Below, piece by piece: positions 1 through 36,802 of a DNA stretch of 64,000 bases. The stretch is taken from the NCBI GenBank assembly GCA_977862235.1, contig OZ374566.1:1-64000 (forward strand). The letters run 5' to 3'. Both the position numbers and the translations under genes were made by a program. The notes beneath the pieces were generated by a model that saw nothing but the letters and a program-made list of their open reading frames with translations, was not told where the DNA came from and ran no database searches. Every line of letters begins with the position of its first letter. Position 1 is the stretch's first letter. Origin of the DNA: Dudresnaya verticillata. Its lineage: Eukaryota.

Positions 1-850
1 AACCCCTAAAACCCTAAACCCCTAAACCCCTAAACCCCTAAACCCCTAAACCCCTAAACCCCTAAACCCCTAAACCCCTAAACCCCTAAACCCCTAAACC
101 CCTAAACCCCTAAACCCCTAAACCCCTAAACCCCTAAACCCCTAAACCCCTAAACCCCTAAACCCCTAAACCCCTAAACCCCTAAACCCCTAAACCCCTA
201 AACCCCTAAACCCCTAAAACCCCTAAAACCCCTAAACCCCTAAACCCCTAAACCCCTAAACCCCTAAACCCCTAAACCCCTAAACCCCTAAACCCCTAAA
301 CCCCTAAACCCCTAAACCCCTAAACCCCTAAACCCCTAAACCCCTAAACCCCTAAACCCCTAAACCCCTAAACCCCTAAACCCCTAAACCCCTAAACCCC
401 TAAACCCCTAAAACCCCTAAACCCCTAAACCCCTAAAAAACCCCTAAAACCCCTAAACCCCTAAACCCCTAAACCCCTAAAAACCCCTAAAACCCCTAAA
501 CCCCTAAACCCCTAAACCCCTAAACCCCTAAACCCCTAAACCCCTAAACCCCTAAACCCCTAAAACCCCTAAACCCTAAAACCCCTAAAACCCCTAAACC
601 CCTAAACCCCTAAAACCCCTAAACCCCTAAACCCCTAAAACCCCTAAACCCCTAAAACCCCTAAACCCCTAAACCCCTAAACCCCTAAACCCCTAAACCC
701 CTAAACCCCTAAACCCCTAAACCCCTAACCCCTAAACCCCTAAACCCCTAAACCCCTAAACCCCTAAAACCCCTAAACCCCTAAACCCCTAAACCCCTAA
801 ACCCCTAAACCCCTAAACCCCTAAAACCCCTAAACCCCTAAACCCCTAAA
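1..850 (+). repeat. Telomeric array (CCCCTAAA)n, i.e. TTTAGGGG on the G-strand
   Basis: Continuous 8-mer repeat from base 1 to 850 with occasional extra or missing A or C. C-rich strand at the 5' end, as expected for a left chromosome end. Confidence 0.97.
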
Positions 851-1474
851 TCTTTGCTAGTAAAGGACTTCCTTCCTCAGTGTTGTCGCTGGTGTTTCGA
901 TACCCAGACAATGGATGCCTTACTGACTCGTTGTATGCCCACACGTGGTTGCCTGCAAACCTGCGGGTGGTAGAGTTAGCATTCACCACACTTGTTTCCT
1001 TCCCTGGACTTGTTGCGCATTACATGTCTACAAGTACGGAACTGAATGTGCTGAATGCTTCGTACGGTTGTCGGTCTAACGGTACATGCGGGACGGTGCC
1101 ACGCGCCCCGTTGCATTGTGTGCGCCCAACCCAATGACACACTCCCCACAGAGTTTGTTTCCGGTAGGCTTACAGGTTTATTTGCGCGCGCGCGCGCTTT
1201 TCCCGCTCTCGATTTTGTATTTCGTATTTTGGACCGCATGGATGTAGCATGCGTGCGCACGCAAATCGATATCAGCACTGCGTGCTCGACACGCGCACTG
1301 CGCCTGCTGTGTTGGTTGGCCGAAAGCAGCACGGCACCGTGTGCGCTCCGTTCCTCACAGTGTCTATTCGCCGTTAAGCATGAAGTCGGCCCTCACGGGG
1401 TCAGGAAGGCCGTTATTAAGCATGGAGTCGAAACGAATCGGCCAATGGTGGCCTATGCAGATACCCCCTCACAG

Positions 1475-1659
1475 TAGTTCGTATTGCGCGACTCGGTCCT
1501 TAACGGAATGTTGATTTGTAATTAATCTGGGCGTTTCGTCTCCATGCTTAACCCCGGATTACATATAGTTCGTATTCCGCGACTCGGTCCTTAACGGAAT
1601 GTTGATTTGTCATTAATCTGGGCGTTTCGTCTCCATGCTTAACCCCGGACTACATATAG
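1475..1659. repeat. Tandem duplication, 2 x 91 bp
   Basis: TAGTTCGTATT...CCCCGGA(T/C)TACATA starts at 1475 and again at 1566 with few substitutions. Confidence 0.9.
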
Positions 1660-1730
1660 CGCCTGTCTACGGTTCACACTGCGCACGACCAAGTGAGGAC
1701 TTGCGATGTTCGCTTCTCGGTCGAGTCGGG

Positions 1731-1983
1731 ATACCTTCTCGTCCAAATCAGCTCATTCGGTAAGAAAAGTTACCCTGGGATAACTTTTCGTCCAAATCAG
1801 CTCATTCCGTAAGAAGAGTTACCCTGGGATAACTTTTCGTCCAAATCAGCCCATTCCGTAAGAGAAGTTACCTTTTCGCCCAAATCAGCCCATTCCGTAA
1901 GAAAAGTCACTCTGGGATAACTTATCGCCCAAATCAGCCCATTCCGTAAGAAAAGTTACCCGGGATAACTTTTCGCCGAAATC
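1731..1983. repeat. 49-bp tandem array, about 5 units, with an internal imperfect palindrome
   Basis: Unit TTTTCGTCCAAATCAGCTCATTCCGTAAGAAAAGTTACCCTGGGATAAC; GTCCAAATCAG at 1741 and 1790. One unit is shortened. Confidence 0.9.
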
Positions 1984-2696
1984 GAACCTGCAAAAGCAGA
2001 AGGACACGTGGCGGGAAGTCGATGGTCCGCTAGGACACGTGTCAGTCTCTCATTGGTACAATACTGAGATGCTTTCCCGTCTTCCACTTGGCACCTCTTA
2101 ATTGGCCCACTTGGTACACCTTGCCAGGTGGCGTACCCCAGACGAAGTACAGCCTGTCTCTGCTAGACCAGCTAGTACCCTTGCTGTCGACTCTTAATTC
2201 GTGCCGAGGGCGCACCAATGGCTGTCTTTCAAAGTGATCAGGCACGGATTTGGGGTTGATTTTTAAAAATATATATTACCTGGTGACCCCATTCACAGCG
2301 CTTTGCGCTCAAAATGTGTCCTTGATTTGCATACAATTCGTGGGCTGATTTCTTTCACAAAACATGTTTTGATTCGCCTTGAGCAGTGGCCGCGAGCAAA
2401 AATACTGTATTTCTTATCATACTTGGTCCCAAACACGTTTTGGTCTCTATCTCCTTAACGAAAACAGACTTCAGAATCGCTCTATCTGTACTGGTTCGGT
2501 GGGAATCCGAAAACATGCAAAATCAGTACAGTGGAGAAGGGTTTCCCAGATGGTACTGTACAGAGCTCAGTTCGCCCGCGCCCCGTTAACCTGCGAAATC
2601 AGCCCCCATTGAAAGGTATCCAGTACATTTTTACCCAACTGCATATCAGTTCGTGTTTGCTACTCACGGTCAAGGAATTCGGATCGTTACAGAACA

Positions 2697-4928
2697 TCAT
2701 CCGAAGATGCCCACATCTCTACGTTGGTCACTTCCCTCGTCTTCATTCTCAGAATCAACTATCCCATCACTGGTGTCCATTACTTTCATCATCTCTTGAG
2801 CAATACTCTCAAAGTCGGAGCGGTCAATGGCAATATAGGTTGTGCGCAGTTGCTCTATGGAAGTGTTCATATATTTTCCCACCATGCTGAGGAATTCCTC
2901 CTCGCTGAGATGCGTGAACACCTTCTTATCGCGATATGCCTGCAGGGTCATAGTCGCGAAGCTGCTGCGCAGATTTGTAGTGGTTATTTTCTTCATATCC
3001 GGGCGCTTATCCGCTAGGAATCTCTTGACAGTGTTCGTAATCTGTGACGGATGCAGTGACTCGCCACTCGTGGTGTGAATCAACAAGGGCATATCACTCG
3101 GGGTCTCCTCCGTCTCCGTGGCGCTGATGACAACGTCACGCATCACTTCAGTGTGAAACTTCACGAAAGGCAGAACAAAACTCGGAACGAGGACATTAGG
3201 CATGTCCAGGGTCCTTCGCGTCTTCTCTTTCTTGGTCCTCATTTCGAAGAATTTCACCCTGTCCACGCTGTCCTTCATCTCTTGGAGCTCGTCACTAGAT
3301 GGAGTCTGCAGCTTGCAGTACACCTGCGGACGCTGTCCCGCCGCCGACATGATAAGAAGAATGGTGAGATTGATGAACCATTTCTTCACAACTCTCACAT
3401 CCTTGAGCTTGTGAATAGCATGAGTTCTATTGTGGGTCGCACACGTTTGGCGGTAATATTGCATGATACCCTTCAGCTCAAGGGAAGCCATGTCCACACA
3501 TTCCTTAAAATCTCTGGGGAAAAACACTACCCCCTCCATAATCCGTTGCGACATGCTTTTGCGCCTCGTAGCCTCGGACCTGCCGATGCTTTTGCTGTCC
3601 GCGAAGACCTTCGAGAAAGTAAACCGAGCCCGTTCCGCCTCGTGGTAGCGTGTTGTATCAATCCCTCCAAAACGTCTCTTCGCGTACTCCGCTATCTTGC
3701 GAAGCTGTCCAGCCTTAGTCATTACTGTAGTTGCAGCGCCCCTAGAGGAATAATGGTTCAGCAGCAATGTGCCCGTCTCGATGTCGCAGATCGCAGAAAA
3801 TAGCATCCCCCTCTTGTGAAGCTGAGAAACTGGGGACAGGCCACGCACAACTCTCAGGCGCATGAACTGCCCAGCCACAGTGGTTAGCTGTACGAAACTG
3901 GCATTGGAACCATTTTGAACCTTGGATGCATACTCAGTGACAAAGATCTCTTGCAGATCTGCATTGTTGAGCTGGGTCAAGGGAAGGCCGGCATATCCCT
4001 TCTTACCTTTGGAGCAAGGGGTTTCATCTGCTAGAGTGGCTTCCTCTGAAGTGAAGAAATCTGGCTTGCTGGCCTTCAGGATGCGAAGGTCCCGTAGCCA
4101 GTTGCTTCGAATGTTGGCATGGTCGCGGTCTTCAGCAGAAAGGAAGCCCTTCTTGCGAGCAGATGAAGGACGCGAGACTCCCAACGACGCGTTTCGACGG
4201 GTCGCGTTGGGACAAAGCCTAGTGGTCTTCCGCGACATCAATACAGAATCAATCCTCTGCGAAACACCAGCATAGTCAAACGGCTGCAAGTCGAATACAA
4301 CGTCTTCCTCATCTTCGTTGTCAGCAGCCTCCATCGCACCGCCCATCTCGTATCTGTTAGGTGTGACCGGCACGTCGACATCTACGTCCTCTTCGTCCTC
4401 ACCTTCCGCTTCTTCCTCTTCGTCCTCCTCGTCCTCTTCGTCCTCTTCGTCCTCTTCTTCCTCTTCCTCTTCTTCGTCGGAGAAGAGCAGCTCGTCGTTA
4501 ACTTGTTCCAATGACTGAGAGTCTTCACTGCGATCCTCATCTGTCTCTCTCTTCTCATCCTCATCAGTCCTTCTCCTGAGAACGTGCTGCGAGCGATATG
4601 GAATTGAATTGTCGTCGTCGTCGTCGTCGACGACGAAGTCATTGAGAAAATCACTCGGTTGGCTCCCCTTCCCACGCGCCACCTCCTCATCAATTTCGGC
4701 ATCCGACAGTTCAGCAATTACCCCAGCAGAACTGGGCGGGTCAGCCTGGGTCGGTCGCAGCCTTTTGGTGTCGGATTCCGGACGACTGCGAACTGTTCGA
4801 GCATTCTGTATCTTGCGGGCCTTCGGTAGACGCCCATCATGGAGCGGTTTGTGCGTCTTCCGCACCAGAGCTCTGCGCTTCGTCCCACGCTTGGCCTCAC
4901 GCACTTGCTTTCTTACACTCCTCGTCAT
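2697..4928 (-). CDS. Tyrosine recombinase/integrase-like protein with a basic and long acidic N-terminus; uninterrupted ORF
   Basis: 757-aa ORF (frame open to 4970; first ATG at 4928). C-terminal motifs appear in YR order: AGQRPQ (Arg), KEKTRR (Lys), TTNLRSSFAT (HxxR box with H replaced), YMNTSIEQLRTTY (H/W box replaced, Tyr nucleophile). Confidence 0.75.
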   Translation of the reverse strand: MTRSVRKQVREAKRGTKRRALVRKTHKPLHDGRLPKARKIQNARTVRSRPESDTKRLRPTQADPPSSAGVIAELSDAEIDEEVARGKGSQPSDFLNDFVVDDDDDDNSIPYRSQHVLRRRTDEDEKRETDEDRSEDSQSLEQVNDELLFSDEEEEEEEEDEEDEEDEEDEEEEAEGEDEEDVDVDVPVTPNRYEMGGAMEAADNEDEEDVVFDLQPFDYAGVSQRIDSVLMSRKTTRLCPNATRRNASLGVSRPSSARKKGFLSAEDRDHANIRSNWLRDLRILKASKPDFFTSEEATLADETPCSKGKKGYAGLPLTQLNNADLQEIFVTEYASKVQNGSNASFVQLTTVAGQFMRLRVVRGLSPVSQLHKRGMLFSAICDIETGTLLLNHYSSRGAATTVMTKAGQLRKIAEYAKRRFGGIDTTRYHEAERARFTFSKVFADSKSIGRSEATRRKSMSQRIMEGVVFFPRDFKECVDMASLELKGIMQYYRQTCATHNRTHAIHKLKDVRVVKKWFINLTILLIMSAAGQRPQVYCKLQTPSSDELQEMKDSVDRVKFFEMRTKKEKTRRTLDMPNVLVPSFVLPFVKFHTEVMRDVVISATETEETPSDMPLLIHTTSGESLHPSQITNTVKRFLADKRPDMKKITTTNLRSSFATMTLQAYRDKKVFTHLSEEEFLSMVGKYMNTSIEQLRTTYIAIDRSDFESIAQEMMKVMDTSDGIVDSENEDEGSDQRRDVGIFG

Positions 4929-5749
4929 GTTGATCCCGGAGATCGGGGGTATGGGAAAGACAGGGAACACAGTTGGTCGAGCGAGGGACTAGGGGCAGCT
5001 ACAAAACGTCTTCTTTAAGCGGGAGCACTTGGCCAGGGAACAGTTGAGGGCGGGAAGCGAAAGAGATGCACGGCGGCAGAGAGCCGAGTAGTGGCGCTTG
5101 CAAAGGAGCTCGAGGGCGGTGGTAGGGTGAAGTAGCGGCGCGCAGCGGAACGAATACGTACAGGAGCGCGGCGGTGGTGGATTATCACGGACGGAGGAAC
5201 GCAATCATAAGAGCGGGACGGCAGTGGCGGAACGCGGGGCAGAGCAAACGCGCAGAGAGCAGGATATCGTGGGGACTGAGCTGTCGCTTTGGGTAGGGTT
5301 GGGGCAGAGGTGGTCATTGGGAGCGACGACAATACCGCCGTCGGCGAGAATATCTACGAAAATTGTCGGATCCAAATCTGATCCAATGCGGCGACGACGG
5401 CGAGGGAAAGAAATTACCCTACATGCAATTGCCGAATTACCCTAGATGACATTTCCTAATTCCCCGGAAATAAACGGGAGCTGTAATTCAGAGCACGCTT
5501 GTTGATGGGCGAGCAGCAGTGCTGTAATGCAGTAGGTACAGTTGCACAGTAGTAACTCGCACGATTGTGGGACTGCAGCGCTCACATATGAGCTAAACCT
5601 ATTGTCAGTTAGGCCATTAAACCTCTATCTTTCCTGCAAATTATAAACTTGTTAATGGCGGTCAACCCGCTCATGAGCTTTACCGAAACGTATTTGAGCC
5701 CGGTGACTGGTAATGTCCCCGTCTGCTAGCCTCAATGGAACTACAATAA

Positions 5750-6480
5750 GGTGCGGAATAATCCTGTCATCCACTGAACCCGGTGGCTTTTATACACGGT
5801 GACCGCGAAAATCAGTGATACTTAAGTGCAATGACGGATGCGCTAAGCTCAGTCGCATTTAAAAGCGGTGATGGTTAAACCCAGTGGCGCTTAAATGGAA
5901 TGACTTCTTAAACTCCAGACTTCCTAAAGCCAGTAGAACTTAAATGCTTAAATACCGGGAGGGTTAATCCCCTCATAAATTTCAACCAGTTGCACTTAAA
6001 TACCGCTTCTATTAATCTCCCCATGCAGAAAACGCAGTGGAACGTAAATACCGTTACTGTTAGACTCCCATTCCTTAAATCCAGTGGTAGTTAAGTACCG
6101 TCACAGTTAATCCCTTCATGCGTTAAACCCATTGGTAATTATATACCGTGATTGTTAATCCCATCATGCGCTAAACCCATCGATAATTATATATGGAGAC
6201 CGTTACTCCCTTCATGTGCTAAACCCAATTGGTAAATCTATAGGGGGACTGTTAACCCCTTCCTGTGCCAAACCAAATGGTAATTACATACAGTCAATGT
6301 TAATCCCAACACTGTTAATTCCTCCATGCGCTAAACCCATGGGTTGTTATATTTGGTCACATTTAATCCTTTCATACGGTAAACCCATTCGTAACTACAT
6401 ACGGTCACTGCTAAACCCTTCATGCGCTAAACCCAGTGGTAATTATATATGCTGACTGTTAAACCCATACTCCATTAAAT
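5750..6480. repeat. Degenerate AT-rich tandem array, period about 47-48 bp
   Basis: Recurrent unit resembling GTTAATCCCTTCATGCGCTAAACCCATTGGTAATTATATACCGTGACT; clearest at 6050-6470, decaying leftwards. Confidence 0.75.
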
Positions 6481-6571
6481 ACAACTCTTGCTAGATTTCA
6501 TCTCAGCTACTCCCATAACCCGTTAAACCTAGTACCTACGCATCTATCTACCTTACTCCCCAGCTTCCACT

Positions 6572-6746
6572 TAAACCGTAGCTCCCTTACATACAAACAA
6601 TCCTTGCTCCCAAACTACCTAATCCGTTACTATATAATATAGAAGTATACTAAACCCCTAAACCGTAGCCCCCTTACATACAAACCATCCTTGCTCCCAA
6701 ACTACCTAATCCGTTACTATATAATATAGAAGTATAACCCCTAAAC
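6572..6746. repeat. 2 x 87-bp duplication, each copy ending in a telomere-motif seed
   Basis: TAAACCGTAGC...TATAATATAGAAGTATA at 6572 and 6659; TAAACCCCTAAACC at 6651-6664 and AACCCCTAAAC at 6736-6746. Confidence 0.85.
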
Positions 6747-6775
6747 ACACAACCGCGCTGCTACATTTCGCAGAC

Positions 6776-8716
6776 ATGACCGCGGCGAGAATGGATCTAT
6801 CTAACTCTGTGCCTTCAGGTCTTACTGTGCCTCAAAAGTACAGCTTGAAAGTGCCCGCTCTGTCGAACTCGCCAACTTTGACAGCTGCAGTGGTTACCAT
6901 AATCGCTGTAATCACAGCTCAAGAGAGATATGATATCAGGACTGAGCAGAGCTATTTGATGGAACATACCGCCGATATCGCTGCAGCTCTTGGAAAGGTT
7001 CTGCAAGAGAAAGTGAATGCTACCCTTAATCCACAGGACAAAGTAACGCTTGATCTGTCTCTAGTTCTTACGGGCAGTGGATACCGTAGACCAGTCTTCA
7101 CACGAGTTGCGGGAAGAAGTGAACGGAATGGCGATGCCAATGCCGGCGTGGCAGCCAGATACACCCATGTTTCCCAGCTCGATGCACTCCGTTCCGATAA
7201 TGACGAAGGAAATGCCATAGGCATTCCTGCTCATCAAGTATCTGTATTGCATGCAAGCAGACCTGCAGGAGATCACCATGGAGGTTTCATTGATGAAGTT
7301 GTAGTGGATGAGGGCGATGGTAGCGCGACTCCGACGGGAAATAATGCAAAGAGACTTCGAAGAGATAAGCAGATACCGGAATCTAACTCTTTTATCCTCT
7401 CCTCGGTAAGTCGTGTGGATGGAAACAGTCTTTAAATTGCGGCACTGGAGCCCGAGAGAAACCGAGCTGGGACCACTGCTGAGAGCGCTACTCGTCGCGA
7501 CCATAGTATCAACGCTGAGGCAGCATACTGGGACAATTTGGGAACGTTCAGGCTGAAGAGGTACCCCACCAGGCGAGTCACAGCGAGCAGAGGCCGCAGT
7601 GGTCCCAATACGTTCCGTTCGTACCACGCGATGGAGGAGGAGGCAGCATCTCTAGACGAAATGGTTGCGCTGCCAGACGTCTTTATTGTCAATTCATCCA
7701 TTCGACCTGCACTGCGAAGCAGACGCTGTGCCGTGCTTGGAATTAGGGAGGAGTCCCCAACTTTGGACTTTCTGACGAAGGAAGACGTCACGCAAATCAC
7801 AAAGAGCATAGAGATGTCTGCCGCGACTGCATTCAGATTGCAGTTTGATTCTTCAGCAAACGAGGCAGCATTGCGGCATCAGGCCGTTGGCCATCTGCAA
7901 CAGATGGCTGATGCGCTCTATACCAAGGGCTACGCTGTGGACCGCAGTTCTTTAACGAGAGGTTCAGATGTTGAACAAGTTGCAAGAATTGACCGCATTA
8001 TCAATTATATGGTCCCGCTGCAGGACATGAGAGAAGACACATTTTGGCACGTCATCTGCACAGACCCCAATCCGAGCCTCGCTGAAATCAAGAAGGACTT
8101 TGCGAGAAAGCCCGATGAAATGGGTGCCTTAATGCGGTGGCAGACCACAACTAAGAACTTTTCGGACATGTTGTATGAAAAGGAGCACGACGCGCCCTGC
8201 GGTGATGCGAGAAGCGAAGGTGGGGTGTTTAGGGACAAAAGCATGATCGAGGCATATCTGGCAAGGTACGTGGAGTTGCCTGGGCTTCAAGATAACACAA
8301 CGCCCATGTATATGCCTCTCCGTGGGTTGCAGCTCATATTTACAGGTCAAGAAAGCGCAAGGAAAACACCGCATTCGGACTATATGGTGCCACAACCGGG
8401 GTGGCACCCATCTGGAATTGCGATGCTCGATGCCGGAGAGCCCCCGGCTCTGGTCAACCTCACGGTAATGTTCAGCGGAGAGCAACCTTTTGCGATTCGG
8501 GTTTGGCCATATGCCCACATTCGGCAGGCAACAAGAAACGCGGAGGAGAGGAAGAAGATATTGGAGACGACGCCGTCTTGTCTGGTAACGGTCCTTTCGT
8601 ACAGTATATTGCTCTTACGCGGAGATATTATTCACGCTGGTTGCAGCGGGGTTGAGATGAAGGTCGCGTTTGGTACTGATGGTCTGCGTCCGTACCAGGG
8701 TTGTGCGGGCATTTAA
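6776..8716 (+). pseudogene. Protein with a C-terminal 2OG-Fe(II) dioxygenase-like (HxD...H) domain; in-frame stop or intron near 7433; 3' end overlapped by a hAT insertion
   Basis: ORFs 6776-7435 and 7538-8716 are in the same frame. Motifs TPHSDY (8372-8380) and LLLRGDIIHAG (His at 8633). A possible GTAAGT donor lies at 7406. hAT-type repeats start at about 8696. Confidence 0.6.
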
Positions 8717-9206
8717 TACCATAGGAATTAATGACCCCCGGGCATGGGGTCAGGGCAAGGGCATTAGGCATGCCCTTACCCGTAGGGCATCAAGTTTCGT
8801 AAAGCACGCCAAGGACTAATGTACCCTTGACCGTGTTTTTTGTGCTCGGGTTAACGTACCCATACCCGCATGCCCGTACGTTTTGTGAGCAAGAAGATAC
8901 CCCTGCCCGTGCATTAATTTAAAAAGCCTTTAGTTCAACTGACCCATGGCCGCTTGCCCTGGGGTGCTAGTTGGCGGGCCATGCACCGATGACCGCATGC
9001 CCGCCTCGTTCCGAATTTCGGCAAATGCCTGAACGGGCATGCATGACCGTCCAAGATGCCCGTCTGACATGCCGGCGCCAAAATGCCCGGAAAACCGAAA
9101 CATCTCAGTTCTACAAGTTCTTTCGCGCCAAATGTAACCCAGTAAATAACCTAAATGGGCTGTGCTGTGCGACACCTTGTTCCTCCATACCACCGCACAA
9201 AAAAAG

Positions 9207-11574
9207 ATGGACACTTCGAACGGGCCTCCCGTCGAGGCTGCTCTGCCGCCTGCGCGAGGCCCCACACCACGCGGAGAGTCAGCAGAAGCTGCAATTCCTC
9301 TAACCGAACGCATTGTTGACGCCGCGAAATTTCTGTCAAGTTCGGCTCTTGTACCGCCAATCGCAGCAATGGAAGTGCAACAATCAGAGCAAGTCGAGGC
9401 CAACCATCCAGAAGCTACATCTACGTTTAGCGTCTCCGATTCCCTCACTCGCCGCAAAATGTACAAGCTCAAAGGACGTTCAGCCGCATTCTGGTCGTTC
9501 TACATCTCCAAACCTGGCAACGTTTTTTCCTGTGTAATTTGCAAACCTTCGGAGAATGGTGCGTCCAATAAGGATAAGCGTCTGAAAAAGGGTCTCGTTG
9601 TATACAGCAGCAGTACAGGCACGACTTCTCTTAAATGGCATGTTACTCAAAACCATGCAAAAGAATTTGAGAGCCTGAAGGAGAGGATAGAGGAGATGCA
9701 GGAAGAAGAAAGTGCACGCAGACGAGGTAAGAAGAGAAAGAAGCCTACTGAGAACTTATTCAACTCTCATCAGAAATATGGAGAATATTCAGTTGTCCAG
9801 AAACGTCACGAAAAATATTTGCTTTTACTTATTGCAAAAGCAGCATTGCCACTTTCTATTGTGGAGAATGTATACCTCAAGCGGTATGTGCATGGGATTA
9901 ATCCGAGGTTAAAAGTACCCAACCGCAGCATACTCACTGATAAGATAATTACCAAGTTTATTGAGGAATGGAACAATGACTTTGTATCACCCAAGCTTAC
10001 CAGGATGGAATCAGTCACCATAACATTTGACCTTTGGATGAGTCGTGGATGTGAGGACATATTTGACCTCGTGGCCCACGGCATTGACGATAAGTTCAAG
10101 CAACATCAGGTACATCTTCGAATGGTGCAATGTAAGTCAATTACCGGCAACGATCTCGCTGAAATCCTCAAAGATGAGCTTACTAACCGAGGGATCCTGG
10201 ATAAGGTTGCATGCTGTGTCAAAGACGGCGGTTCCAACCTCAGGGCATGCACTAACGCGTTAAGGCAAATAGTGGCTTGTAGTCCACTAGGTCTTCAGGA
10301 ATGTTTTGATGGACCTTGCTTTGCACACATTCTAAGTGGTGCGTGCAATAGTTCTCTAGGTGATGTTTCATGTCATGGTTTGCAGCTTGTGTCCATCAAG
10401 AAAACCAAAGCAGCTCTTCAGAAGTGTATCACGTGGACAAAGAAGAGTGCGAAGGGAAGAGATGCTTGGTATGCCTCATGCCGCGAAAAATCAAAGAAAG
10501 AACGCGTTGTTCCGACTCCTGTGAAGAAGCCAGGAGAAGATTGAATTGAGGCAAAGGATACCCTCCACGAAGACATGGGAGACGACAAAAGCGACTGTTG
10601 AGGTACTAACCCCTGTAATGAAGGCATGTATCTTAAGTCAGAAGCGGTTTGGATGGCTCCTGAGTGATGCAGTGGCATCATTTTGCAACCTTTTCGTAAG
10701 CTGTACAAGAATGTGTGAAGAAACTTCAGCGGTTGATCAAGAAAGACTTCAAGGCATGAGCGCTTTTGGAATTGAGCTTTTACATCTGAGACATAACATC
10801 TCACGATCCATTATCCTCGGACTAAGGCCTGTCTTGGAACCATTGTTGTCCTTCCGTGCCTTGAACGGGAAATACGTCCACCACTACCTAAGCCTGGTGC
10901 TAGACCCTGAATACAAGTCTCTGCGATCTCCATTTATGAAGCTTTACCCCGGTCCGAAAGCAGATCAAGGTCGGCAGCTGGCTAAGAAATATGATTCAGA
11001 AGTTTTGGTACCGCTGCTCATAGGTTTGCAGAAAGCTAAGTCTCGTCCTGGGCGAAATGCACAAGACGAAATTTCTCGAGTCACCAAAGCTCAATCCTTG
11101 TCTCAGCAGAGCCTTATTAATGAGGCTCTATCGGACAGTGAGGAAGAATGCTTCATTCTGGATGAGGAGCCCTCAAAGGAGTTTGTAGTCAAGGTGCGGA
11201 TGGAAGAAGAGCTTTCAAGATTCAGAAAAAGGCCCTTTTCGCGTGTCCTGGATAATAAGTTGGAGTGGCTTGCAAAAAATCAGGAAAGCTTTCCTAACGT
11301 GGCATTACTGGCGAAGCACATTTTGGCGATACCTGCAACACAGATTGAGAATGAAGGAGTGTTTAGTTTTGCAGGACGTATTGCATCTCCGCTGCGAAAC
11401 CGTTTGAAAACAGACAATATTGACAATCTGGTGAGCATTGCACGACATTTTCCACATGAAGGTAGTTGGAGCGAACAAGAACGCAAGGCCCCGGTCGATC
11501 TTCTGGAATTTAGTGACTTTCTTCTGGAGCAAGAAGTGGCTAACGAAAAGGGCACCGATTCGGATTCTTCCTAG
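9207..11574 (+). pseudogene. hAT transposase (BED zinc finger, DDE, C-terminal dimerisation domain), broken near 10544
   Basis: FWSFY..CVIC..TTSLKWHVTQNH (BED), TFDLW, KDGGSN, CFAHIL (CxxH), FPNVALLAKHILAIPATQIENEGVFS. Stop and frameshift occur where the TRW/TRF motif is expected. Confidence 0.9.
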
Positions 11575-11984
11575 GTGGGTGTAACGGGTTGTTTGAGTCA
11601 AGTTATGAGTACACAATTTCAACTCACTAAACATGCTGTATAGCTGGTTTGGAGTTACGTCACATGCCTTAATCGCAGAGTTGTTTATGTCCATCTTTAT
11701 CCTTCAGCAAAAAATATGGTTCTAAACTGCTTTGCCACCAGTACACCCCCATTCGCAATGTTCTCCGTCCTGCCGATTGGACATTGTTTAGCATTACACA
11801 ATGAGTGACGCCTCGATTCTAATTCTCCTCGACGGACAAGCCACGAAAGATATTCAACACTGCCAGGGTGCTGCAAATATAGCTCCAAGTGAAACTTGAG
11901 GGGATCATCGAAAAAGAACCAGACCCCAAACGACAGACCGTTGCTTGTACTGACTCTGAATAGATTTTAGCGTACCAAGGCTTG

Positions 11985-12062
11985 AAAAGCCCTCAGTTAT
12001 GGGAATTGAACCCACGATGTTCCCGCACGGCTTCGGCTTTTACCCACTAGGCCACGCGGTCA
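11985..12062 (-). other. tRNA-derived (Pol III promoter-like) sequence inside the hAT
   Basis: The minus strand reads GACCGCGTGGCCTAGTGGGTAAAAG...CGTGGGTTCAATTCCCATAACTGAGGGCTTTT: A box TGGCCTAGTGG, B box GGTTCAATTCC, oligo-T. No clean cloverleaf. Confidence 0.55.
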
Positions 12063-13217
12063 CGTCAGCAGAAGTAGAATTTCTAATATTTATATCACAT
12101 GCCCGGGCGGGCATGCCCAAATTTGCTCAACTTTCCAATGACCCATGCCCTTGTCTATATGCCCGGGTACTTTTTTTCTTATTTTTCTTTGCCCGTGCCC
12201 GTCTTCGAAATGTGACGAAACTTTTTGGCAATGCCCTTGCCCGCCGTGCTCGTGGCTTCGCAATTTTTTAATAATAATGTGACCCCTTGCCCGTGCGGGG
12301 TCACCATGGATTAAATGCCCGTTGCCCTGCCCGTTCTTATCCTGGGTGTTCCTCACCTGACCCATGTCCGCCTATGTTTTAAAAATATTTTTCCTACATG
12401 CCCTATGACCGTGCTGAGCCAACAATAAATCCCTGGCCTGTTGTACCCATGTCCGCATGCCCGGCCTCCGAGACTTCCACACCGATGACCAATGACCCCC
12501 GGGCATATGCTGGACCAAGGCCGGCTTGTCCGGGGTTTACTCAGCATCTCAGACAGATTACCTAATATACTACGTGTGCGACGGCGGCGGGCGCGGTGCG
12601 CGGGAAGTCAGGACGCGTGCCGCGCCGTCGAGTGTATGACACGTCGTCGTCGCCATGGAGCCGCGTGCGAGGGAGCTCGGGAGTAGCTTACAGGCGTGCG
12701 TGCGAGTAATGGGTGACTTACAGGCGCATGCGTGTAGAAGTGCGGGTGATCCGGATTCGGATCCAGACCCCCGCCAGCATTGCTGGCGCGCGGCCATTAC
12801 AGGCGCGCTCCTTACATCACTGTGGATCCCGATGTCGGATCCCGATGTCCCATCCGGATCCGATCCGGATCCGGGCCAAGCTTACAGGCGTGCGCCTTGC
12901 GCCTTGTCGATCGGGATGATGCATCCGGATCTGCCCGTCCAGTGCGCGAGTGCGCCGCGCCGCGCGGGGTAAAGGCGGCCGTATGCCCGTGGGCCAATCT
13001 TCCATGACGTGTTCGCGCGCCAACGGCGGTTGAAGTGCCGTCGGCAGACGTTGGCGTATAATACGCTCAAAGCGAAAAAGGGGCAGCCCTCCCCTTGCAC
13101 CACACGACCCCCTCGCAAAACGCGAACACGTCCGCCGCTCGACGCGACTTGCCGCTTGCGTTTCTCTGTGGATCCCACTTCGTCGTGCGTGCGTTCCTGC
13201 GTTCCGGCTGTGCCGTG

Positions 13218-14721: not shown

Positions 14722-15589
14722 TGTGGCATAGCTGTAAGACCAGCTGTGCCACGCACGTGCAGCTGTAAGACCAGCTCTGCCACGCACGCGCAGCTGTAAG
14801 ACCAGCTGCGCCACGTGTGCACTGCTGTGCGCACGCTGTCAGCCGGTGGTGCCGAAGCCCGCCTGAACTGTAAGGAAGTGCGTAGTGGCGCCAGCGTGCG
14901 CACGCGTACACGTGTGACACTGAAACTCCCATGTAATTTCTACGTTTATTGTTTTGTAGTGTACAGCACCGTCTAAGTGCAAGCGGCGGTCGAACGCCCT
15001 GCTGCCCTGCGCGCTGCGCGCACGCACTCCGGCGCAGAGCCGTTGAGTACGTGACACGCGCGCGCGCACTCCGGCGTCGAGCCGTTGAGTACGTGTGGAC
15101 CGTTTCGCCCACGCGCGCCCCCGGGTTTCCGATACCCGTACGCGTCGACGCGTGTTGGGGCGCGCCGGCGCACCTTCTGGGATGGTGCCGCCGCAGGCCC
15201 TGTAGTATATCTAGTAGTCGCCCCGCTGGGCTTCAGTAAACCAGGCAAGCCAGCCTACGCCAGGCTTGCCCTTTCTGCTTTGGGTTTCTTTCCCAGTCCT
15301 TCGCCCTACGGCTTCCCTCTTTCCCTAGCCGTCTAGGCTTTCCTTTTCCTTTCCCTACCGTCGGCTTCGTGCCGCCCCACGACGGGGGCGCAGGGATCCG
15401 GCCGCTGCCGCCCGCGTACGGTACGCCCCGTGCGCGCTCAGGCTTCGACGCCGTTGATCCGCGACCGTCGACGGCGCGCGCGGCCGACACCGCCGCTCTA
15501 CCACCACAGCTACCACCCTTCGACGGGTCTGGGTGCGACTGATCGACCAGCGCAGCTAGACGTCAGTTCGACCTGATGTCTATGCCACA
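14722..15589 (+). repeat. Gypsy-1 5' LTR (868 bp)
   Basis: TGTGGCATA...TATGCCACA terminal inverted repeat; near-identical to 27174-28114. Confidence 0.93.
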
Positions 15590-15590
15590 C

Positions 15591-15608
15591 TGGTCTCCCG
15601 ACCTAGAA
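15591..15608 (+). promoter_or_regulatory. Primer-binding site TGGTCTCCCGACCTAGAA (probably tRNA-Tyr)
   Basis: Starts with TGG 1 nt after the LTR; the same 18-mer occurs in Gypsy-2. Confidence 0.8.
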
Positions 15609-15735
15609 GTCGCAGAAGACCCTATCACCTCTCGCATCGACGCGATCGAGGCCAATAATTCCGCCGCTACCTACTTCGGCTGCTGCCGGTTCGGCAGACG
15701 CCGCGGCAGGTGAAGTTGGCGGTCGACACACTTCC

Positions 15736-17834
15736 TTGCTGAGTAACGTCGGCGTCTCAGGAGCTCCCCTAGAGGGACCGCGCATCGAGCGCTGGGCGGC
15801 TATTGCCAAGGCCCTAGGAGGGACAACGGTCTCTGCGACCGACTTCCAACTACTCTACGAGGAGACGATGGACTCACTTTCGGAAGTGTACGACACCGGC
15901 ATGGCCTCAGTCGCAGACGCGCGGGCACAAGGTCAACGTGACCTGGAGTCGCTTCGACGCGGAACCCTCGCCTCCGTCGAGGAAGGATTAACCCGAACTC
16001 AAGGGCTCCTCGACGAGCTACGTCAACGCGTTGAGTTGATTGAGCACGCACCGGCGCGGTATGACCGACGGGCGCCTAGCCCGTCGCCGGTGCGGAGCCG
16101 CCCTCCGCGATCGCCGTCTCAAGCGGATCCGGTTCGCGAACTGGCCAAAGCCCTCCTCGCTGAGCGTCATGCTCAGCGAAACCCCTTTTCTCCACCGGCC
16201 TCTCCGCCTAGGAGTGGGCAAGGGTCCCCTCGCCCTACAAGAGATGACGACCCCTTCTACGGGGTCGACCCCAAGCTACTACAACGCACTCTCGACGGGC
16301 GCGGAGTTGGAGGGGCGACTAGCCCCTCACCACACGAAGGTCCCGTGTCGGCCTACTGGCACTGGGGGCCATTGATGCCGGGCGTCGAGCCGCTGAGCAC
16401 CTTGGTCCCCGAATTCGCAAAGGCGATCGACTACCGCTCCTATCGTCTAGACGACATAAGACAGCGGGACAATCAGCAGCAAGTCTGCAATGGCAACACC
16501 GCCAAGATTGTCAGTCGGGTGAAGGCTCTCATGCCGCGGCTAGATCGCTACGACGGCAAGGAGCCCATCCGCTTGCTTGGCGTGCTTAGAGAGCTACGCC
16601 AAGCCTTCAACGGCGTCGGCCTGTCGGAAGGCGCAGCGGCGCGGGTGGTGTTCTGGTTACTAGACGGAACGGCATCCCAGGTGTATTCGAGTCACCTTTT
16701 CTCGGGGGTCCGGACGACTAGTCGCGGCACCCCCCCCCATGCTGGGCCTCGGTGATCAATACCCTCGTCGAGAGGTTCGTCACCGACGACGTGATCGCCG
16801 ACGCGCACGACCGACTGACCACCGCCCGGCAGCGGGACGCCGAGTCAGAACTCGAGTTCGCCTCTCGTCTAGAGGGCTACGCAGATGACTGTGCCGGCGT
16901 CTACTCCGACGAGAACCTGACGCACCAGTTCCTGCGTGGTCTGCTCCGACCACCCGACCCGCAGTAGCGGAGAAGGTAAGGCAGATGCCAATGGTCGAGC
17001 AGACCAACTTCAGTACCGTTCGTCGGATCGCCCACAGTGAGGGCACAACCTACCGCGCCCGCATGGCCAAGGCGTCGACGCCGGCCATCGTTTCGGGGCG
17101 CGGTAGGGGAAGCAGTTCGCCAAGCGGCCGCACACTGCTTATCGAGGCGCCACACACACCCGATAGGGAAGCGGCCTTCGACGGCACGATGTTGGTGGCG
17201 CCCGATGACGATGGTTTCGAACCCGTCATGGTCGTGCCCGCGCTATCGACAGCCAGGGCGGCGCAAACCGAGGAGACCCTCGACATCTCAGGACGCATCG
17301 ACGACGTCCTGCCTAGGAGGATCCCTCCACTCGCAAGAGGCAATGGCCCGCGCTGTCACCCCTGATCTACAGGGGTGGTACATCTGCTGGTTCTGTCGAG
17401 AACTTGGACACATCATGTACTCGTGCCCATTCCTGACTAAGTAACAGCAGTTGTACTGCGCGTATGCGAACTGCAACCATAGACTGGAGACGCAGCCGCA
17501 CGCGAACAACAACTTGCAGCAGCTCATCGACGAGCGCATGCTGGCAGACGCCAAGGCAAGTTACCCCGCAAGACGCTTCGACACGCAGCGGGGTGGGGCC
17601 CGACGCTTCGACGCGAGGGGTCCCCCGCAGCGCTTCGACTCGCAAAAGTATCGGGGGAGCCGCGACAGTACCGCGGGGATCGTCGAGATCCGCGCCGCGA
17701 ATACCGAAGGGCAGACGTCCCGCGGTTCCTCACTCGCGACAAGCGGGTCGGGTTTGACGACCAAGCCGGTCGCCAATCTCGGGCGTCGACGCCCTCGAGG
17801 CCCGACCCGCAGCGCGAACTGCTTCGGGCAGTGA
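15736..17834 (+). pseudogene. gag: Gypsy-1 gag, frameshifted
   Basis: DYRSYRLD motif, capsid-like YDGKEPIRLLGVL..., zinc knuckle CWFCRELGHIMYSC; split over several ORFs. Confidence 0.8.
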
Positions 17835-18324
17835 TGACCGTGCAGGAGCACACCGGGCTAGCAGCCGACGAGTGGCTCCCGCGAGCGCTCGACGCGCAGA
17901 GCAAGGGCGAGTCCACCCGGGGGCAGGTTGAGCAGCCCTCGCTCCTTTTTGACACGCCGCCGCGATCGACGCGAGGCGCCGGCCCGGCCCCTAGCCAGCC
18001 AATGGGATCCGAGGAAGATAGCTCGGATTCCGAAAATAATTTTGACCGGGTCGAACCGGAAAAGAGTAAAGGCGGCGCCGTTCGTGCGGTCGCGAGCACC
18101 GTCTCTCTCTACCACAGACCCACCATCCTCCGCCAAGCCGTCGATGGCCAGGACCCCCTCACCAAGCAGCGCTGAGGTACCCCTCCGGGAAGAGCCATCG
18201 AAAGCCACGCGCTCCAGGCCACCTTGGCCCCCGCGGCGTCGATGCAAGCGACAGGCACGACGCCGAGCGCGTAGGGATCCGTCGACGGATCCCGAGGCAC
18301 CCTCCGCTCGACGCGAAGGTGCCA

Positions 18325-21300
18325 TGGCTCACTGCGTCGACGCGGAGCCGGCCACTTCCCCAGACGGGTATGTGTGCCTCTTGTCCTCGGAGATATACCG
18401 CGTGTCTGGGTCGCTAGGCGCTGACCCAGGGGTAATGATACCCCACACCATTGCGGTGGACACCGGCTCCGGTTACAACCTCATCGCGAAGCGGGCGCTG
18501 CCGCCCGGATGGGATCAGCACGCGGCGGTGATGGAGTCGACTCCTCGCCTCGCCGGGGCTGATAAGACCCCACTGAGCCTATCAGGAGTAGCGCACCTCT
18601 CGATGAGGTTGGGGAACACGACGTTCCGCGTGCCATTCATAGTGGCAGACACCTTTGCCGTCGACGTCCTGGTGGGAACGCAGTTCCTCAATGCGCACGT
18701 GCGAGGCATCGACGTCGAATCGAAACGCCTATCGCTCCGACGCGGGGGCTCGGTGCCCCTCCTCAAGCGCAGTAGACCTGCCGAGGACCGCAAGCCGGCA
18801 TCGAAGCCGAAGAACCCGTCAACGGGTTTGTCGAGGAAGCACCAGAGGGAGCTCCTCGACTGGGATCACGACACCCACACCATCCGCCTCTCTAGGCAGA
18901 TGATGCTCCCAGCCTATTCCCAAAGGCTCGTCTCCGTGACGTCAGGAGCAAGTGGACTGATCCACACCGAACCCAAACCCTCGTTGCAGTCCCGCCACGG
19001 CGTGAGACTTACCAACGGGGTGCACGACGTCGAGTCGATGCGACCCTTCGGGGTCATCGTCGTGAACTTCACCGAAAAGCCTCGGACCCTGCCGAAGGGC
19101 ACCGTTGTCGGCTACGCGGTTAGGAACCCGGTGGCGCTGATAACTCCAGACCGCAAAGTCGCGGAGGAGTTTGGGCGGGTGATGAACATCACCACCCTAC
19201 CACCACGGGGGCAGAGGCCCCCGGTAAATCAGGATGCCGTGGAACCATCCACCTCGCCGTCGACGGCAAAGGGCACCGACGCCCAGCCGCTGCAGGGCGC
19301 AGCTACCGCCGCAGCGAAGGCCAACCCGTCCATCGAAGACTGGGAGTCGCAGGTCGATCTCTCGTCTATCGAAGACGAGGTGACCCGCAAGGAGGTCCTC
19401 TCCATGCTCAGGAAGCATCAGTCCATGTGGAACGGGAGGCTGGGCACTATTGCCACCACCAGACACCACATCGACGTGGAACGGGGCACTCGCCCCATCC
19501 GCTCCATGACCTACCGACAGGGCCCTGCCATGCGCAAGCTGGTGCAGGACGAGGTGGATACCATGCTTCGTGCAGGGGTTATCGAACCCGCCACCTCGGA
19601 ATGGGCATCACCAGTAGTCCTCGCGCCCAAGAAGGACGGCACACGTAGGTTTTGCGTGGACTATCGACTTGTCAACACGAAAACACTAAGTGATGCGTAC
19701 CCCCCTCCGAGGATGGACGACTGCATCGACAGTCTAGGCGACGCAGCCGTCTTCTCGACGTTGGACTGCAACGCGGGGTACTGGCAAATCCCTGTCGCAG
19801 AGGCTGACAGGGATAAGACAACGTTCACTTCGTTCTTAGGGACGTTTCGCTACTTGCGAATGCCCTTCGGGCTGAAGAACGCCCCCGCGACTTTCCAGCG
19901 GGCACTGGACATAATCCTCAGCGGAGTCCGATGGCAGTGTTGCCTGATCTATCTAGACGATGTGATCATTTTCTCGCGGTCGATCGCGGAGCACGTTGGT
20001 CATCTGGACCAAGTGCTGACTCTGTTGCACAAGGGAGGAGTATCCCTGAAACTGAAGAAGTGCCACTTCTTTCAGTCTCGCGTTGGCTATCTAGGCCACT
20101 TCATCGAACCGGGGAAGCTACGCATGGCGCAGACGAGCAGCGACGCTTTCCGCCATGCGCAGTTCCCGACCTCCCTGACTAAGGTGAGGTCGTTCCTCGA
20201 CGCGTGCAATGTCTATCGCCGCTTCGTGCGCAACTTCGCGAAGATCGCGCGTCCTCTGACGAACATGACCCGCAAAGACGCGGATGTGGATTTCGACAAT
20301 CCAAGCGCCGACGCGCTCGAGGCATATGAGACGCTCAGAGCGAAGCTCATATCGCCCCCTATCGTACGGCTCCCCAAGACGGGTAGACCCTACGTCCTCG
20401 ATACGGACGCATCGGCTTATCAGCTCGGATGCGCCCTACTGCAGGAACAGGAGGACGGCCAGCTACATCCAGTCGGGTACTGGTCCTACTCGCTCAACTC
20501 GGCGGAGCGCAATTACTCCGCCACTTAGCGTGAGTGCTTCGCAATGGTGTGGTCGATCACAACCCTGCGGCCCTACATCGAAGGCACGCGATTCACGGTT
20601 CGAACCGATCACGATGCGCTTCGATGGCTGATGTCGCTGACCAACTCTTCGGGTCGACTGACCCGGTGGCGCCTGCGGCTCGCGGAATTCGACTTCCAGA
20701 TCGAGTACCGCCCCGGGCGGGTACACCAAGTCCCGGATGCCCTGTCCCGCTTGGTTCGGCGCCAGCGAAAACAGGAGGAGGTTGACGACGACGTCCCTAC
20801 CTTTGACCCCCCGACGATCGACCGCCCGCAAGGGGAGTCCTCGGCTGAGACGCCGGTGGCACGCTCGGGTACAGAACCCGCGGCTCCCGTCTTGGTCATG
20901 ACACGCTCGCGGGCCAATGCATCTACGCGTTCGGCCCCAGCGCAGCCCATCCCGAAGCCAGTCCGGGGAAACAGCACCGGCACCGCGCCCAAGACGGTCG
21001 CGGCAGACGAACCCCCGGACTTGGCCGACGCAGCGGCGTGGGACGACACCGACGACTTCGACCTCTTCGATCTCCTCCGCGTCGACGCGAGAGATGAGCC
21101 ATCGGACTTGACGTCCGTGGCGCCAGTGAAGCTCCCTTCACCTATTTCCGTCGAGGAATTTGTGGACGCGCAGCGGCACGACTCCTGCCAGACCGTACTG
21201 GCCAGGCAGTCCCGTCGACGGGATAGCCATTTTTACGAGGACGGGGATGGGCTTCTATACCGCCATCATCCGGTCATAGCTTCGCTAGACCAGATAGTGG

Positions 21301-22656
21301 TGCCCGAGTCGTTACAGCCTCGGCTGCTCACGCTCGCGCACCACTCCCTCCTCGCGGGCCACCCAGGGCAGAACAAGATGTTCTATTCCCTGCGTGAGAC
21401 CTACTACTGGCCGCATATGGCGGCCAGCATCGCCATGACAGTAAGAAACTGCAGGCACTGTGCCCGTGACCGCATTCGACTGCGAAGACACCTTCATAGA
21501 CTGAAGCTGTTCCCGGGCACCAGGCCGCTGGAATCCGTCGCTATCGACATACTGGGCCCCTTGCCCAAGACCAAGTCTGGTCGCAAATTCCTCGTCGTCA
21601 TGACGGACCGCTTTACTAAGCTGACCAAGTCGCGCCTCTGCGCACCATTACGGCTTACAACGTCGCAGTTGTCTTCTGTGAACAGTGGGTCTTCCACTAC
21701 GGGCCCCCTAGGTCCTTGCTTTCCGATAACGGAAAGCAGTTCACATCGAAGTTCTTCCAAGCCATCTGCCGGTATTTCGGTTTGAACAACGTGTTCACCT
21801 CCGCGTATCATCCCCAGTCGAATGGACAGGCTGAACGCTACAACCGGACCGTCATAGCCATGTTGAGGAACTACGTCAACGATCACCAAAACGATTGGGA
21901 TCGATACGCCTCTGCGTTGATGTATTCCTACAACTGTCACGTGCACCGCTCGACGCGGACGACTCCATTCAGCTTAGTGCTGTCACGGCCTCCGCCGGAA
22001 TTTACTAAGTTCCACTCGGCGGTCGACCGCCCGAAACCTAGTGAGGATGTCCGAACGGACTTCCTCAAGCGGTTAGACACCGCTATGGGCCTGGCTTCGG
22101 CCGCCCTGGCCAAAACGCAGAGGCGTTATAAAAAGGACTTTGACCGACGGGTCCGGAAGGTCAACTCCCGCATCAAGGCCGGGGACTACGTCTTCATCGA
22201 CGCAACAGACGGGGTGACGAAACCACCGAAGTTGAAGAGCCCGGCCATCGGGCCTTATTGCGTGCTGCTCAACGACGAGCGCACGTTTTTATCGACAGAG
22301 ACGGCCTGGTCGAACGCATCGCAGCGGACCGAGCCGTCTTCTGTCCCCCGCCTCTGGGGGAAGATACTGCGCGTCGAAGCGCGTACTTGCCCACCGCCGA
22401 CGATCTCGCGTCCAAGGCCGTCGACGGCCCGCGGTTCGTGGTGGACAAGATGCTTGACCATGGCACGGCCGAAGACGGCACGCTGCTCTTCCAGGTCAAG
22501 TGTACCGGCTACTCTAAGCCGACTTGGGAACCTCGATCCCATTTGCCGGGGGAGATGGTGAGCCAATACTTCCGCGCGCAGAAGCGTCGGAAGGGCTCTT
22601 GGCTCGACGCCCCATCCCCTCCACTGACCCCCTCGGCGGGGGCGCCTCGTGCTTAA
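18325..22656 (+). pseudogene. pol: Gypsy-1 pol: protease, RT, RNase H, integrase, chromodomain; stop at about 20526 and frameshifts
   Basis: VDTGSG, RFCVDYR, YLDD, LDTDAS, GHPG...CRHC, IDILGP, SDNGKQF, AERYNR, FVVDKMLDH...TWEPRSHL. Confidence 0.93.
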
Positions 22657-26906: not shown

Positions 26907-27173
26907 TGGTCTACAGGCAGCCGTACGCGTGGGGAGGGAGTGTTGGTGGTCGTGGTGAGCGATGACCAGACCACCCCACCCCTCAGAGCCGCAGAGGCGG
27001 CTCTCTAAATAGCCCGTCGCGGCTCAGCGCGGGCACACCCGACGTGGCATCGACGCCCGTCACCGACGGACGTCCGGGGGGCCGCTGGCCAATCCCGGGC
27101 GCCGTATTGGCCACCCCACAGCGTGCGCGTCGTAACGGTCGCGACCGAGGCGTTCGCGCTTGAGGGGGTGTTG

Positions 27174-32852: not shown

Positions 32853-32896
32853 ACTCGCGAGAGGTGGAAAGCCGTGAGGCGGGGATGGCGGCGCCC

Positions 32897-36199: not shown

Positions 36200-36802
36200 G
36201 GTTTTAGGAGTCGCCCAAAGTACTCGCACTCGCACGTTGATTAAATGTTGTGGGGACGGGGACGGTACTGTAAGGCATTTTGTGCTGGTGGGACAGGTCT
36301 TCATTACAGTACTGGACGCTGCATCGAACCCAGTAGTGACGATAGATCTCGCGCGACAACAAAACTGTTACGTAGTGCGGCACAGCCTTGACTGGGTCAG
36401 GTGCGCTTTACAAATAATCCCGCGTTTCCGAAGCAGTCCCATACCCATACGTTACCGCACATGACAAATGACTCTATGTCTCTTGTCCCTAACACGGTCT
36501 TCCCGCTAATCATCACACTACTGAAATTGATCTCCACATCCCTAGGGAGGAACGAGAGTCGCAGGAGCAAGGAAGGGATATAGACAGCGCTGATGGACCC
36601 AGTGCTCCCGGATTGGGAACTGAAGGTGGCGGAAAGGGTGTGAATAGAGCGATGTCGGGAGACCTGGCTGGAGCCGTACTCCCACGTGCACGCAGACAAA
36701 GCTTCAAGGACAGGAGGAGGTGAATGAAGGGGAAGAGAGACATGGTTCGAAGGGGAATGGGCAAGGTGAGAGCAAAGGTGGGGAAGTGGGAGTGCCGGGG
36801 GG

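Follow-up and report, generated by a model that had tools for sequence, protein, structure and literature searches.

Background

Telomere-specific insertion is known for retrotransposons and for giant nimaviruses, and the literature searched here described no small recombinase-only DNA transposon with telomere-specific insertion. The present report concerns a tyrosine recombinase gene near the telomeric end of contig OZ374566.1 of Dudresnaya verticillata (GenBank assembly GCA_977862235.1) and the proposed 5.8-kb element on which it lies, both analysed within positions 1 to 64,000 of the forward strand (the window). The nearest described systems are the Cryptons, which carry terminal direct repeats of 4-6 bp and for which excision as a circle, followed by reintegration at a short core, has been proposed (PMC3212892); the mechanism of Crypton transposition has not been demonstrated experimentally (PMC13565253). 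CryptonV families of cnidarians target microsatellites (PMC8869645), and recombinases of nimaviruses (majaniviruses and pemoniviruses) insert into telomere motifs (PMC10871703). Among red algae, Bostrychia has been reported to contain Cryptons, and PAG3, a gene with a 2-oxoglutarate oxygenase domain and a ParB-like N-terminus, adjoins inverted-repeat arrays and has moved among many transposon families (bioRxiv 10.1101/2025.02.11.637652).

Because telomere repeat flanks both sides of the 5.8-kb stretch that carries the recombinase gene described here, the gene product likely serves a mobile element that may insert into telomeres, and that it is the active transposase of a Crypton-type element is considered probable. 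The fuller reading favoured here, put forward tentatively and at somewhat less than an even chance, is that 851-6649 is a Crypton-type DNA transposon of 5.8 kb which has the enzyme as its transposase and was inserted in the telomere repeat.

The recombinase gene and its predicted fold

The gene and its domains are as follows.

2697..4928, minus strand: tyrosine recombinase gene of 743 amino acids, with a low-complexity N-terminus (residues ~1-260) that is basic and then acidic
Residues ~320-460 of the recombinase: predicted helical core-binding-like domain
Residues ~500-720 of the recombinase: catalytic domain carrying R533, K569, R572, R654, N688/T689 and Y698

The minus-strand frame at 2697-4988 is open for 763 codons from stop to stop, in keeping with the intact gene of the original prediction. 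GTG is an improbable start codon for a eukaryote, and the codon at 4970, where the gene had been taken to begin, is GTG; the first ATG lies at 4928, so that the open frame stands and its start is moved. Between the stop codon and the inner edge of the (TAAACCCC)n tract are 1,847 bp, which agrees with the distance of 1.85 kb from the telomere given earlier. Tyr698 is followed by 45 residues, a tail that is short and variable in the family. Identical pieces of 189 bp and 170 bp within the gene were found in two sequencing runs, and none spanned the junctions.

A Pfam match to PF00589 covers residues 522-689 below threshold, at 15-16 bits against a cut-off of 27.1. Searches of the PDB by sequence and by profile returned low-complexity matches only, and a PHROGs search of 11 family proteins returned no meaningful match. 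The family profile had no significant match to the single sequences of Cre, lambda Int and TelN, and the catalytic register was for that reason taken from motif spacing.

A model of residues 262-720, built from 11 sequences, had a predicted local distance difference test (pLDDT) score of 79.5 and Cre as its top Foldseek match. It was aligned over both domains with XerA (Z 15.1) and Cre (Z 12.8), the root-mean-square deviation (rmsd) being high from domain orientation, and it covered residues ~20-333 of Cre and 6-275 of XerA, including the N-terminal helical core-binding domain. The catalytic-domain model (residues 500-720, from 107 sequences) reached a pLDDT of 94.6 and a predicted template modelling score (pTM) of 0.87, and was matched with XerA (Z 13.4, rmsd 4.7, 160 residues aligned), XerH (Z 11.4, rmsd 3.9, 167 aligned), Cre (Z 10.8, rmsd 4.4, 167 aligned), an integron integrase (also Z 10.8) and bacterial topoisomerase IB (Z 9.5); the protelomerases TelA (Z 5.5) and TelK (Z 4.8) fell well under Xer and Cre. 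All of the top 26 structural matches in the VIA comparison were recombinase or topoisomerase IB folds. Because the catalytic models match known enzymes at Z values from 13.4 (XerA) to 10.8 (Cre), the product of this gene, judged from predicted structures, almost certainly has a tyrosine recombinase fold, as had been proposed; of the enzymes named for structural comparison in the original prediction, Cre was a strong match and TelK a weak one.

Active site and conservation in the family

By spacing relative to Cre and lambda Int, R533 corresponds to Arg-I, K569 to the catalytic Lys, R654 to Arg-II and Y698 to the nucleophile. T651 occupies the place of His-I and T689 that of His-II, nine residues ahead of Tyr698, the same spacing as W315/Y324 in Cre and H333/Y342 in lambda Int. 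This register was set by motif spacing and by the position of K569 in a modelled strand-loop-strand hairpin, without residue-level superposition.

A word search yielded 9 relatives at 32-50% identity to the recombinase, and a profile search yielded 606 clusters at E<=1e-3, of which 204 were at <=1e-30. The best 150 of the 606 clusters were used for alignment; with 4 cluster duplicates left out, the alignment held 157 proteins (the query, the 9 word-search relatives and 147 new sequences), and residues were counted in each column over the rows covering it. Arg533 (137/140), Lys569 (137/139), Arg654 (129/134) and Tyr698 (122/127) are retained in 96-99% of these aligned best matches. The His-I place, where the query has T651, holds Met in 107 of 134 proteins and His in none of the 134, and the His-II box is Asn-Thr (N688 in 124/127, T689 in 120/127). 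An additional arginine, R572, is near-invariant (134/138), and near-complete members number 93, of which 89, being 21-50% identical to the query, have the pattern R-K-R-x-R-N-Y.

The retention of R, K, R and Y and the replacement of both His residues, as originally described, were thus confirmed. The atypical boxes are real and are not peculiar to one copy: because the 157-protein alignment keeps R-K-R-R-N-Y and never has His at the His-I place, His-free boxes are the normal state of the family, and the missing histidines are, on the evidence of this alignment, a fixed trait and not the decay of one copy. Since Cre variants at His-289 remain active in recombination (PMC4381057), the predicted activity of a His-free recombinase is plausible. 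R572 and N688 may take over the contacts with the scissile phosphate that the histidines would otherwise make.

Among 60 long relatives, PF00589 was matched in only 1 at E<=0.001, below the cut-off, and the family goes unannotated because Pfam misses it; DUF3435, DUF3504 and GCR1_C had no Pfam match in the same 60. Cluster look-ups for 30 family proteins returned 'hypothetical protein' as the sole name. Longer fused forms of the recombinase were not found in a search that covered 1,711-4,885 amino acids only and is hence weak.

Relatives at other loci

Five related loci were recovered from metagenome contigs, out of 257 candidate stretches. Four of the five come from a single shared assembly, carry frameshifts or stops and are mutually diverged; L001 and L002 are 74.8% alike over 1,022 nt, and the frame of L003 is open. 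Multiple decaying copies in one assembly are as expected of transposons, and at identities below 50% the family falls into hundreds of clusters. Relatives were found neither in viral contigs (searched with two alignments) nor in prokaryote genomes, and the left junction of the proposed element had no match in viral contigs.

At the contig end of L003 (4560-5031), 2.7 kb downstream of the open recombinase frame, are two successive 8-bp tandem arrays, the G-rich one first. Degenerate copies of their motif stand ahead of them; the arrays do not correspond to any known telomere repeat and may be a simple-repeat target. A near-palindromic motif, TGTCGGACA, makes up a 32-bp array on the upstream side of the gene in L005 (1918-2117), and short tandem copies of this motif lie inside the coding region at L001:1126-1158 and L002:47-86.

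The proposed element and the telomere repeat

The ends of the proposed element are defined by the following features.

1..850, plus strand: terminal telomere tract (TAAACCCC)n, 104.2 copies with 95% matches, reading TTTAGGGG on the strand of the gene
851..6649, no strand: proposed element, 5.8 kb between the terminal tract and the inner match, its ends placed from a single copy
6650..6664, plus strand: inner telomere-repeat match 1, 15 nt, perfect, oriented like the terminal tract
6736..6746, plus strand: inner telomere-repeat match 2, 11 nt, perfect, oriented like the terminal tract
6572..6736, no strand: 87-bp tandem duplication, copies 97% alike, the copy end being an AT-rich palindrome followed by the telomere-repeat match

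In the terminal tract 85 of 104 units are canonical, the variants having altered lengths of the A or C run, and the inner edge is abrupt, with no degenerate zone. The repeat TAAACCCC resembles the TTTTTAGGGG of Bostrychia, and this likeness, together with the Plavaka-like transposase of the window, suggests that the host is probably a red seaweed. Across the 63 kb outside the tract, only two matches of at least 9 nt to the telomere repeat were found, at 6650-6664 and 6736-6746, some 1.7 kb upstream of the recombinase gene; because these are the only inner matches, telomere repeat borders the unit 851-6649 on either side. The two count once, since both terminate copies of one 87-bp duplication. 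A 12-mer of the repeat, with at most 1 mismatch allowed, was matched once outside 1-850, at 6651 (chance mean 0.09), and none of 120 whole-region simulations produced a match of 15 nt, while a locally trained Markov model produced one in 1 of 4,000. The sequence CTAAA (5 bp) is common to both junctions (846-850 and 6650-6654), although any insertion into a repeat brings some such overlap with it. Each telomere repeat unit contains CTAAA once.

The exact in-phase restoration of the telomere on excision was considered as proof of insertion and rejected; it is automatic for any junction.

By analogy with the Crypton model, Tyr698 would cut DNA, the unit would be excised as a circle through crossover in the short common core CTAAA, and the circle would reintegrate at the same core, of which all telomere repeats have a copy. 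If the insertion point lay only one or two repeats away from the telomere's inner edge, a long tract would be left outside and a remnant of 11-15 nt inside, matching what is seen, and the two-sided telomere repeat may thus be the anatomy of insertion near that edge. The 87-bp duplication could go back to an earlier copy, of which it would be the right end left after a break at TAAACC and healing by telomerase; it could also have arisen by simple slippage.

No reverse transcriptase (RT) or gag was found in 851-8716, where the recombinase is the sole mobility enzyme, and the linked gag and RT-ribonuclease H of DIRS, Ngaro and VIPER elements are absent from 851-13000. The absence of linked RT and gag, and the exclusion of DIRS and Ngaro elements, are upheld; the nearest RT (open reading frame 17862-20528) is inside a Gypsy element with its own long terminal repeats (LTRs). 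Among the repeats listed, no terminal inverted or long direct repeats join the proposed ends. The longest inverted arms in a palindrome scan of 851-8716 were 9 bp, an Rfam scan of 851-13000 gave 0 matches, and a tblastx self-comparison gave artefacts only.

Repeats and the gene beside the proposed element

Further repeats, and the gene that follows them, are listed below.

1475..1659, no strand: tandem pair of 91-bp copies, 96-97% alike
1728..1983, no strand: 49-bp tandem array of 5.4 copies, with a 9-bp inverted repeat and a 7-8-bp spacer (GAAAAGTTA / TAACTTTTC)
5830..6520, no strand: 48-bp array, degenerate, containing TAAACCC motifs and a palindrome that is imperfect but has a perfect copy at 6334-6345
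6779..8716, plus strand: predicted 2-oxoglutarate oxygenase-like gene, divergent from the recombinase gene, with an H-x-D ... H motif

The 49-bp array offers candidate protein-binding sites. Its inverted repeat is shaped like a recombinase core site and lies 0.7-1 kb downstream of the gene. The 48-bp array could be part of the element or of the oxygenase-like neighbour gene.

The oxygenase-like gene has an in-frame stop at 7433-7435; splicing of a putative GTAAGT intron that begins at 7406 would take it out and give a product of ~630 amino acids. Its best lead is PhyH-like (score 0.90, 25% of members); no Pfam match was obtained, a word search gave no homologue and no ParB-like domain was detected. 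The gene is predicted to lie outside the element under the reading favoured here and to be a passenger if the element is larger.

Alternative explanations

Several observations weigh against the insertion of a 5.8-kb element in the telomere repeat. Both its ends and its link to the telomere are read from one copy in the sequence. A difference of 4 nt separates the two inner junctions, whose shared cores also differ (5 bp versus 2 bp), and no inverted arms link the two proposed ends. The inner match is short, and one of 11 nt is not rare, arising in 0-25% of whole-region and 1-3.5% of local simulations. Ten of the 11 TAAACCC heptamers outside the tract fall in 5876-6657, the inner match being at the edge of that array and just upstream of the ATG of the neighbouring gene; lying beside both, it may have its origin in the array or in the promoter of that gene. 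A relation between the 49-bp and 48-bp arrays as subterminal repeats was considered and rejected (score 22 against 29.4 in shuffles, p 0.83). A CnTAn-type telomere repeat was seen at none of the five related loci, of which four have <0.6 kb or nothing downstream, with 0-2.9 kb upstream. The protein collections hold open frames only, so that the conservation counts favour intact active sites. Finally, because red-algal transposons carry PAG3 beside inverted-repeat arrays, a larger element is possible, with a telomere that was perhaps added where the chromosome broke. The same enzyme and transposon would then belong to a larger element with the oxygenase-like gene as passenger, its left part lost at a break healed by telomerase at 851 and its inner match a motif of the array or promoter. 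Here, too, a palindromic array (48 bp) stands beside an H-x-D...H gene, a TATA-like stretch lies ahead of the inner match, the passage from the tract to unique DNA is abrupt, as it would be after healing, and the window as a whole is a nest of transposons. We nevertheless rate this main alternative as rather less likely than insertion in the telomere repeat: even the array-trained model seldom yields a perfect 15-nt match oriented like the telomere (1/4,000), the ParB-like domain that is part of the definition of PAG3 was not detected, and oxygenase-like sequence is absent from the five related loci, although these are short.

A terminal position and an inner telomere remnant are also typical of Y'-type repeats, and the gene is intact amid decayed neighbours. 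The unit might accordingly resemble yeast Y', being a repeat of subtelomeres or a gene kept by the host that ordinary recombination or break-induced replication spreads among chromosome ends; the recombinase would then be a passenger or a domesticated enzyme that does not itself move the unit. Several decayed, diverged copies in one assembly and hundreds of clusters below 50% identity fit transposons better, and this origin is improbable. The loss of both pentad His places in every aligned member, together with an acidic disordered N-terminus that would suit a regulator, could point to a catalytically dead, recombinase-derived DNA-binding factor like the animal DUF3504 proteins or Ndc10; yet few residues are better conserved than the nucleophile, the two Arg and the Lys, domesticated DUF3504 proteins lack most of the R-H-R-Y tetrad (PMC3212892) and His-I is dispensable in Cre (PMC4381057), which makes a dead factor very improbable. 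Scarcely different, and lowest of all in probability, is a protelomerase-like telomere resolvase, a topoisomerase IB-like end processor or the remnant of an endogenous giant virus. Feldmannia virus proteins are weak neighbours (E 3e-4 to 8e-4), one cluster is named 'EsV-1-213-like' (score 0.96) and the Z of 9.5 for bacterial topoisomerase IB is of the same tendency, but TelA and TelK lie far below Xer and Cre, the chromosome end is a telomerase-type tract and not a hairpin palindrome, no other viral genes were seen nearby and viral contigs held no relatives. The original prediction had offered a subtelomeric element mobilised by the recombinase or a domesticated enzyme acting at chromosome ends; the former is supported by the fold, the decayed multi-copy relatives and the two-sided repeat, and the latter is disfavoured by the weak protelomerase match and the transposon-like relatives.

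Other features of the window

A hAT transposon (~8722-12560) starts a few bases past the stop of the oxygenase-like gene, and its transposase is split over two frames at 10525-10544. It is followed by a GC-rich Gypsy element at 14722-28114, with LTRs at ~14722-15589 and ~27174-28114 that are ~95% alike and with two additional minus-strand frames (24038-26104) between pol and the 3' LTR, and by a second, broken Gypsy element in the opposite orientation (28730-35163, minus strand). The pol regions of both contain stops. Telomere-linked helicases are known in fungi; here a broken RecQ-like DEAD/DEAH helicase (36770-38050, plus strand), 36 kb from the telomere, ends in a stop and is followed by tandem arrays of 28, 58 and 99 bp.

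A Plavaka-like transposase (47198-51202, minus strand) has a single in-frame stop at 49550-49552, where an intron is possible, and its 783 catalytic codons are open. It is flanked by long orphan frames (43774-46012 and 51936-54674), and 43774-54674 is possibly a giant Plavaka element with accessory genes; Plavaka-like transposases occur in red seaweeds (bioRxiv 10.1101/2025.02.11.637652). A 46-bp array at 56818-57354 and a 12-bp array of ~33 copies at 58247-58636 lie beyond it. The description of the recombinase as the only intact mobility enzyme holds against the hAT and Gypsy elements and the helicase, all of which are broken, and carries a caveat because the 783 catalytic codons of the Plavaka-like transposase are open.

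Implications

Hundreds of diverse members keep Tyr, Lys and Arg, the aligned ones never have His-I, and the extra Arg is near-invariant; this much is well supported. If active, the His-free members show chemistry that runs without either histidine. It is possible, if doubtful, that the recombinase belongs to a non-viral red-seaweed DNA transposon that would home to the telomere repeat by means of a rebuilt His-free site (Arg-Lys-Arg-Arg-Asn/Thr-Tyr) and would found a family of several hundred unannotated enzymes, with insertion, breakage and telomerase healing remodelling chromosome ends. Were this so, repeated cycles of these events would remodel the ends of the host chromosomes, and a one-gene element specific for the telomere repeat might serve as an integration tool in seaweeds. 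The Crypton mechanism could also be tested directly on such an element, since it would have a single intact gene and a simple repeat as its defined target. In the literature searched, which did not extend to Repbase Reports, no account was found of the recombinase family, the His-free site or a telomere-targeting Crypton in red algae. Repbase includes red-algal CryptonC and CryptonR groups with which the family could be identical, and the family may already be catalogued among them.

Comparison with known systems

The best structural matches of the recombinase are XerA, XerH and Cre, those with XerA and Cre extending over both domains, but identity in the catalytic domain is 7-19%, His-I and His/Trp-II are replaced and ~260 extra residues are present at the N-terminus. 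The locus differs from the protelomerases TelN, TelK and TelA in its simple-repeat end, in inverted arms of at most 9 bp in 851-8716 and in having no long palindromic target. Like Starships, it has a stand-alone eukaryotic recombinase at the edge of an element that may carry cargo; unlike them, neither the recombinase nor the 60 relatives gave a Pfam match in the DUF3435 comparison, and the telomere and neighbours suggest that the host is not fungal. The gene at 6779-8716 resembles PAG3 in part: it has an H-x-D...H motif and a PhyH lead and adjoins an array, and ParB was not detected.

Nimaviruses likewise have a tyrosine recombinase tied to telomere-motif insertion, and their enzymes too keep only five of seven key residues (PMC10871703). 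They are crustacean viral genomes of 278-401 kb with a zinc-finger arm-binding recombinase, in contrast to a 5.8-kb one-gene unit without viral genes.

The R-H-R-Y tetrad of Cryptons is here without its His, and a conserved extra Arg, an Asn-Thr box and a short C-terminal tail are further differences. The C-terminal GCR1_C domain of CryptonF was not found by Pfam in the recombinase and 60 relatives; the DUF3504 profile of CryptonA was matched at E<=0.5 in none of 11 members and at E<=0.001 in none of 60; and CryptonS has TATGG termini and a conserved C-terminal region, as against a CTAAA core at the proposed ends and a short variable tail. With the Cryptons (CryptonF, S, A and I; Kojima and Jurka 2011, PMC3212892) the locus shares a single recombinase gene, the lack of RT and gag and the lack of terminal inverted or long repeats; CTAAA at its proposed ends is a candidate for their short core. 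With CryptonV it shares the character of a recombinase-only transposon proposed to enter a simple repeat, the target here being the telomere repeat and the host probably a red alga.

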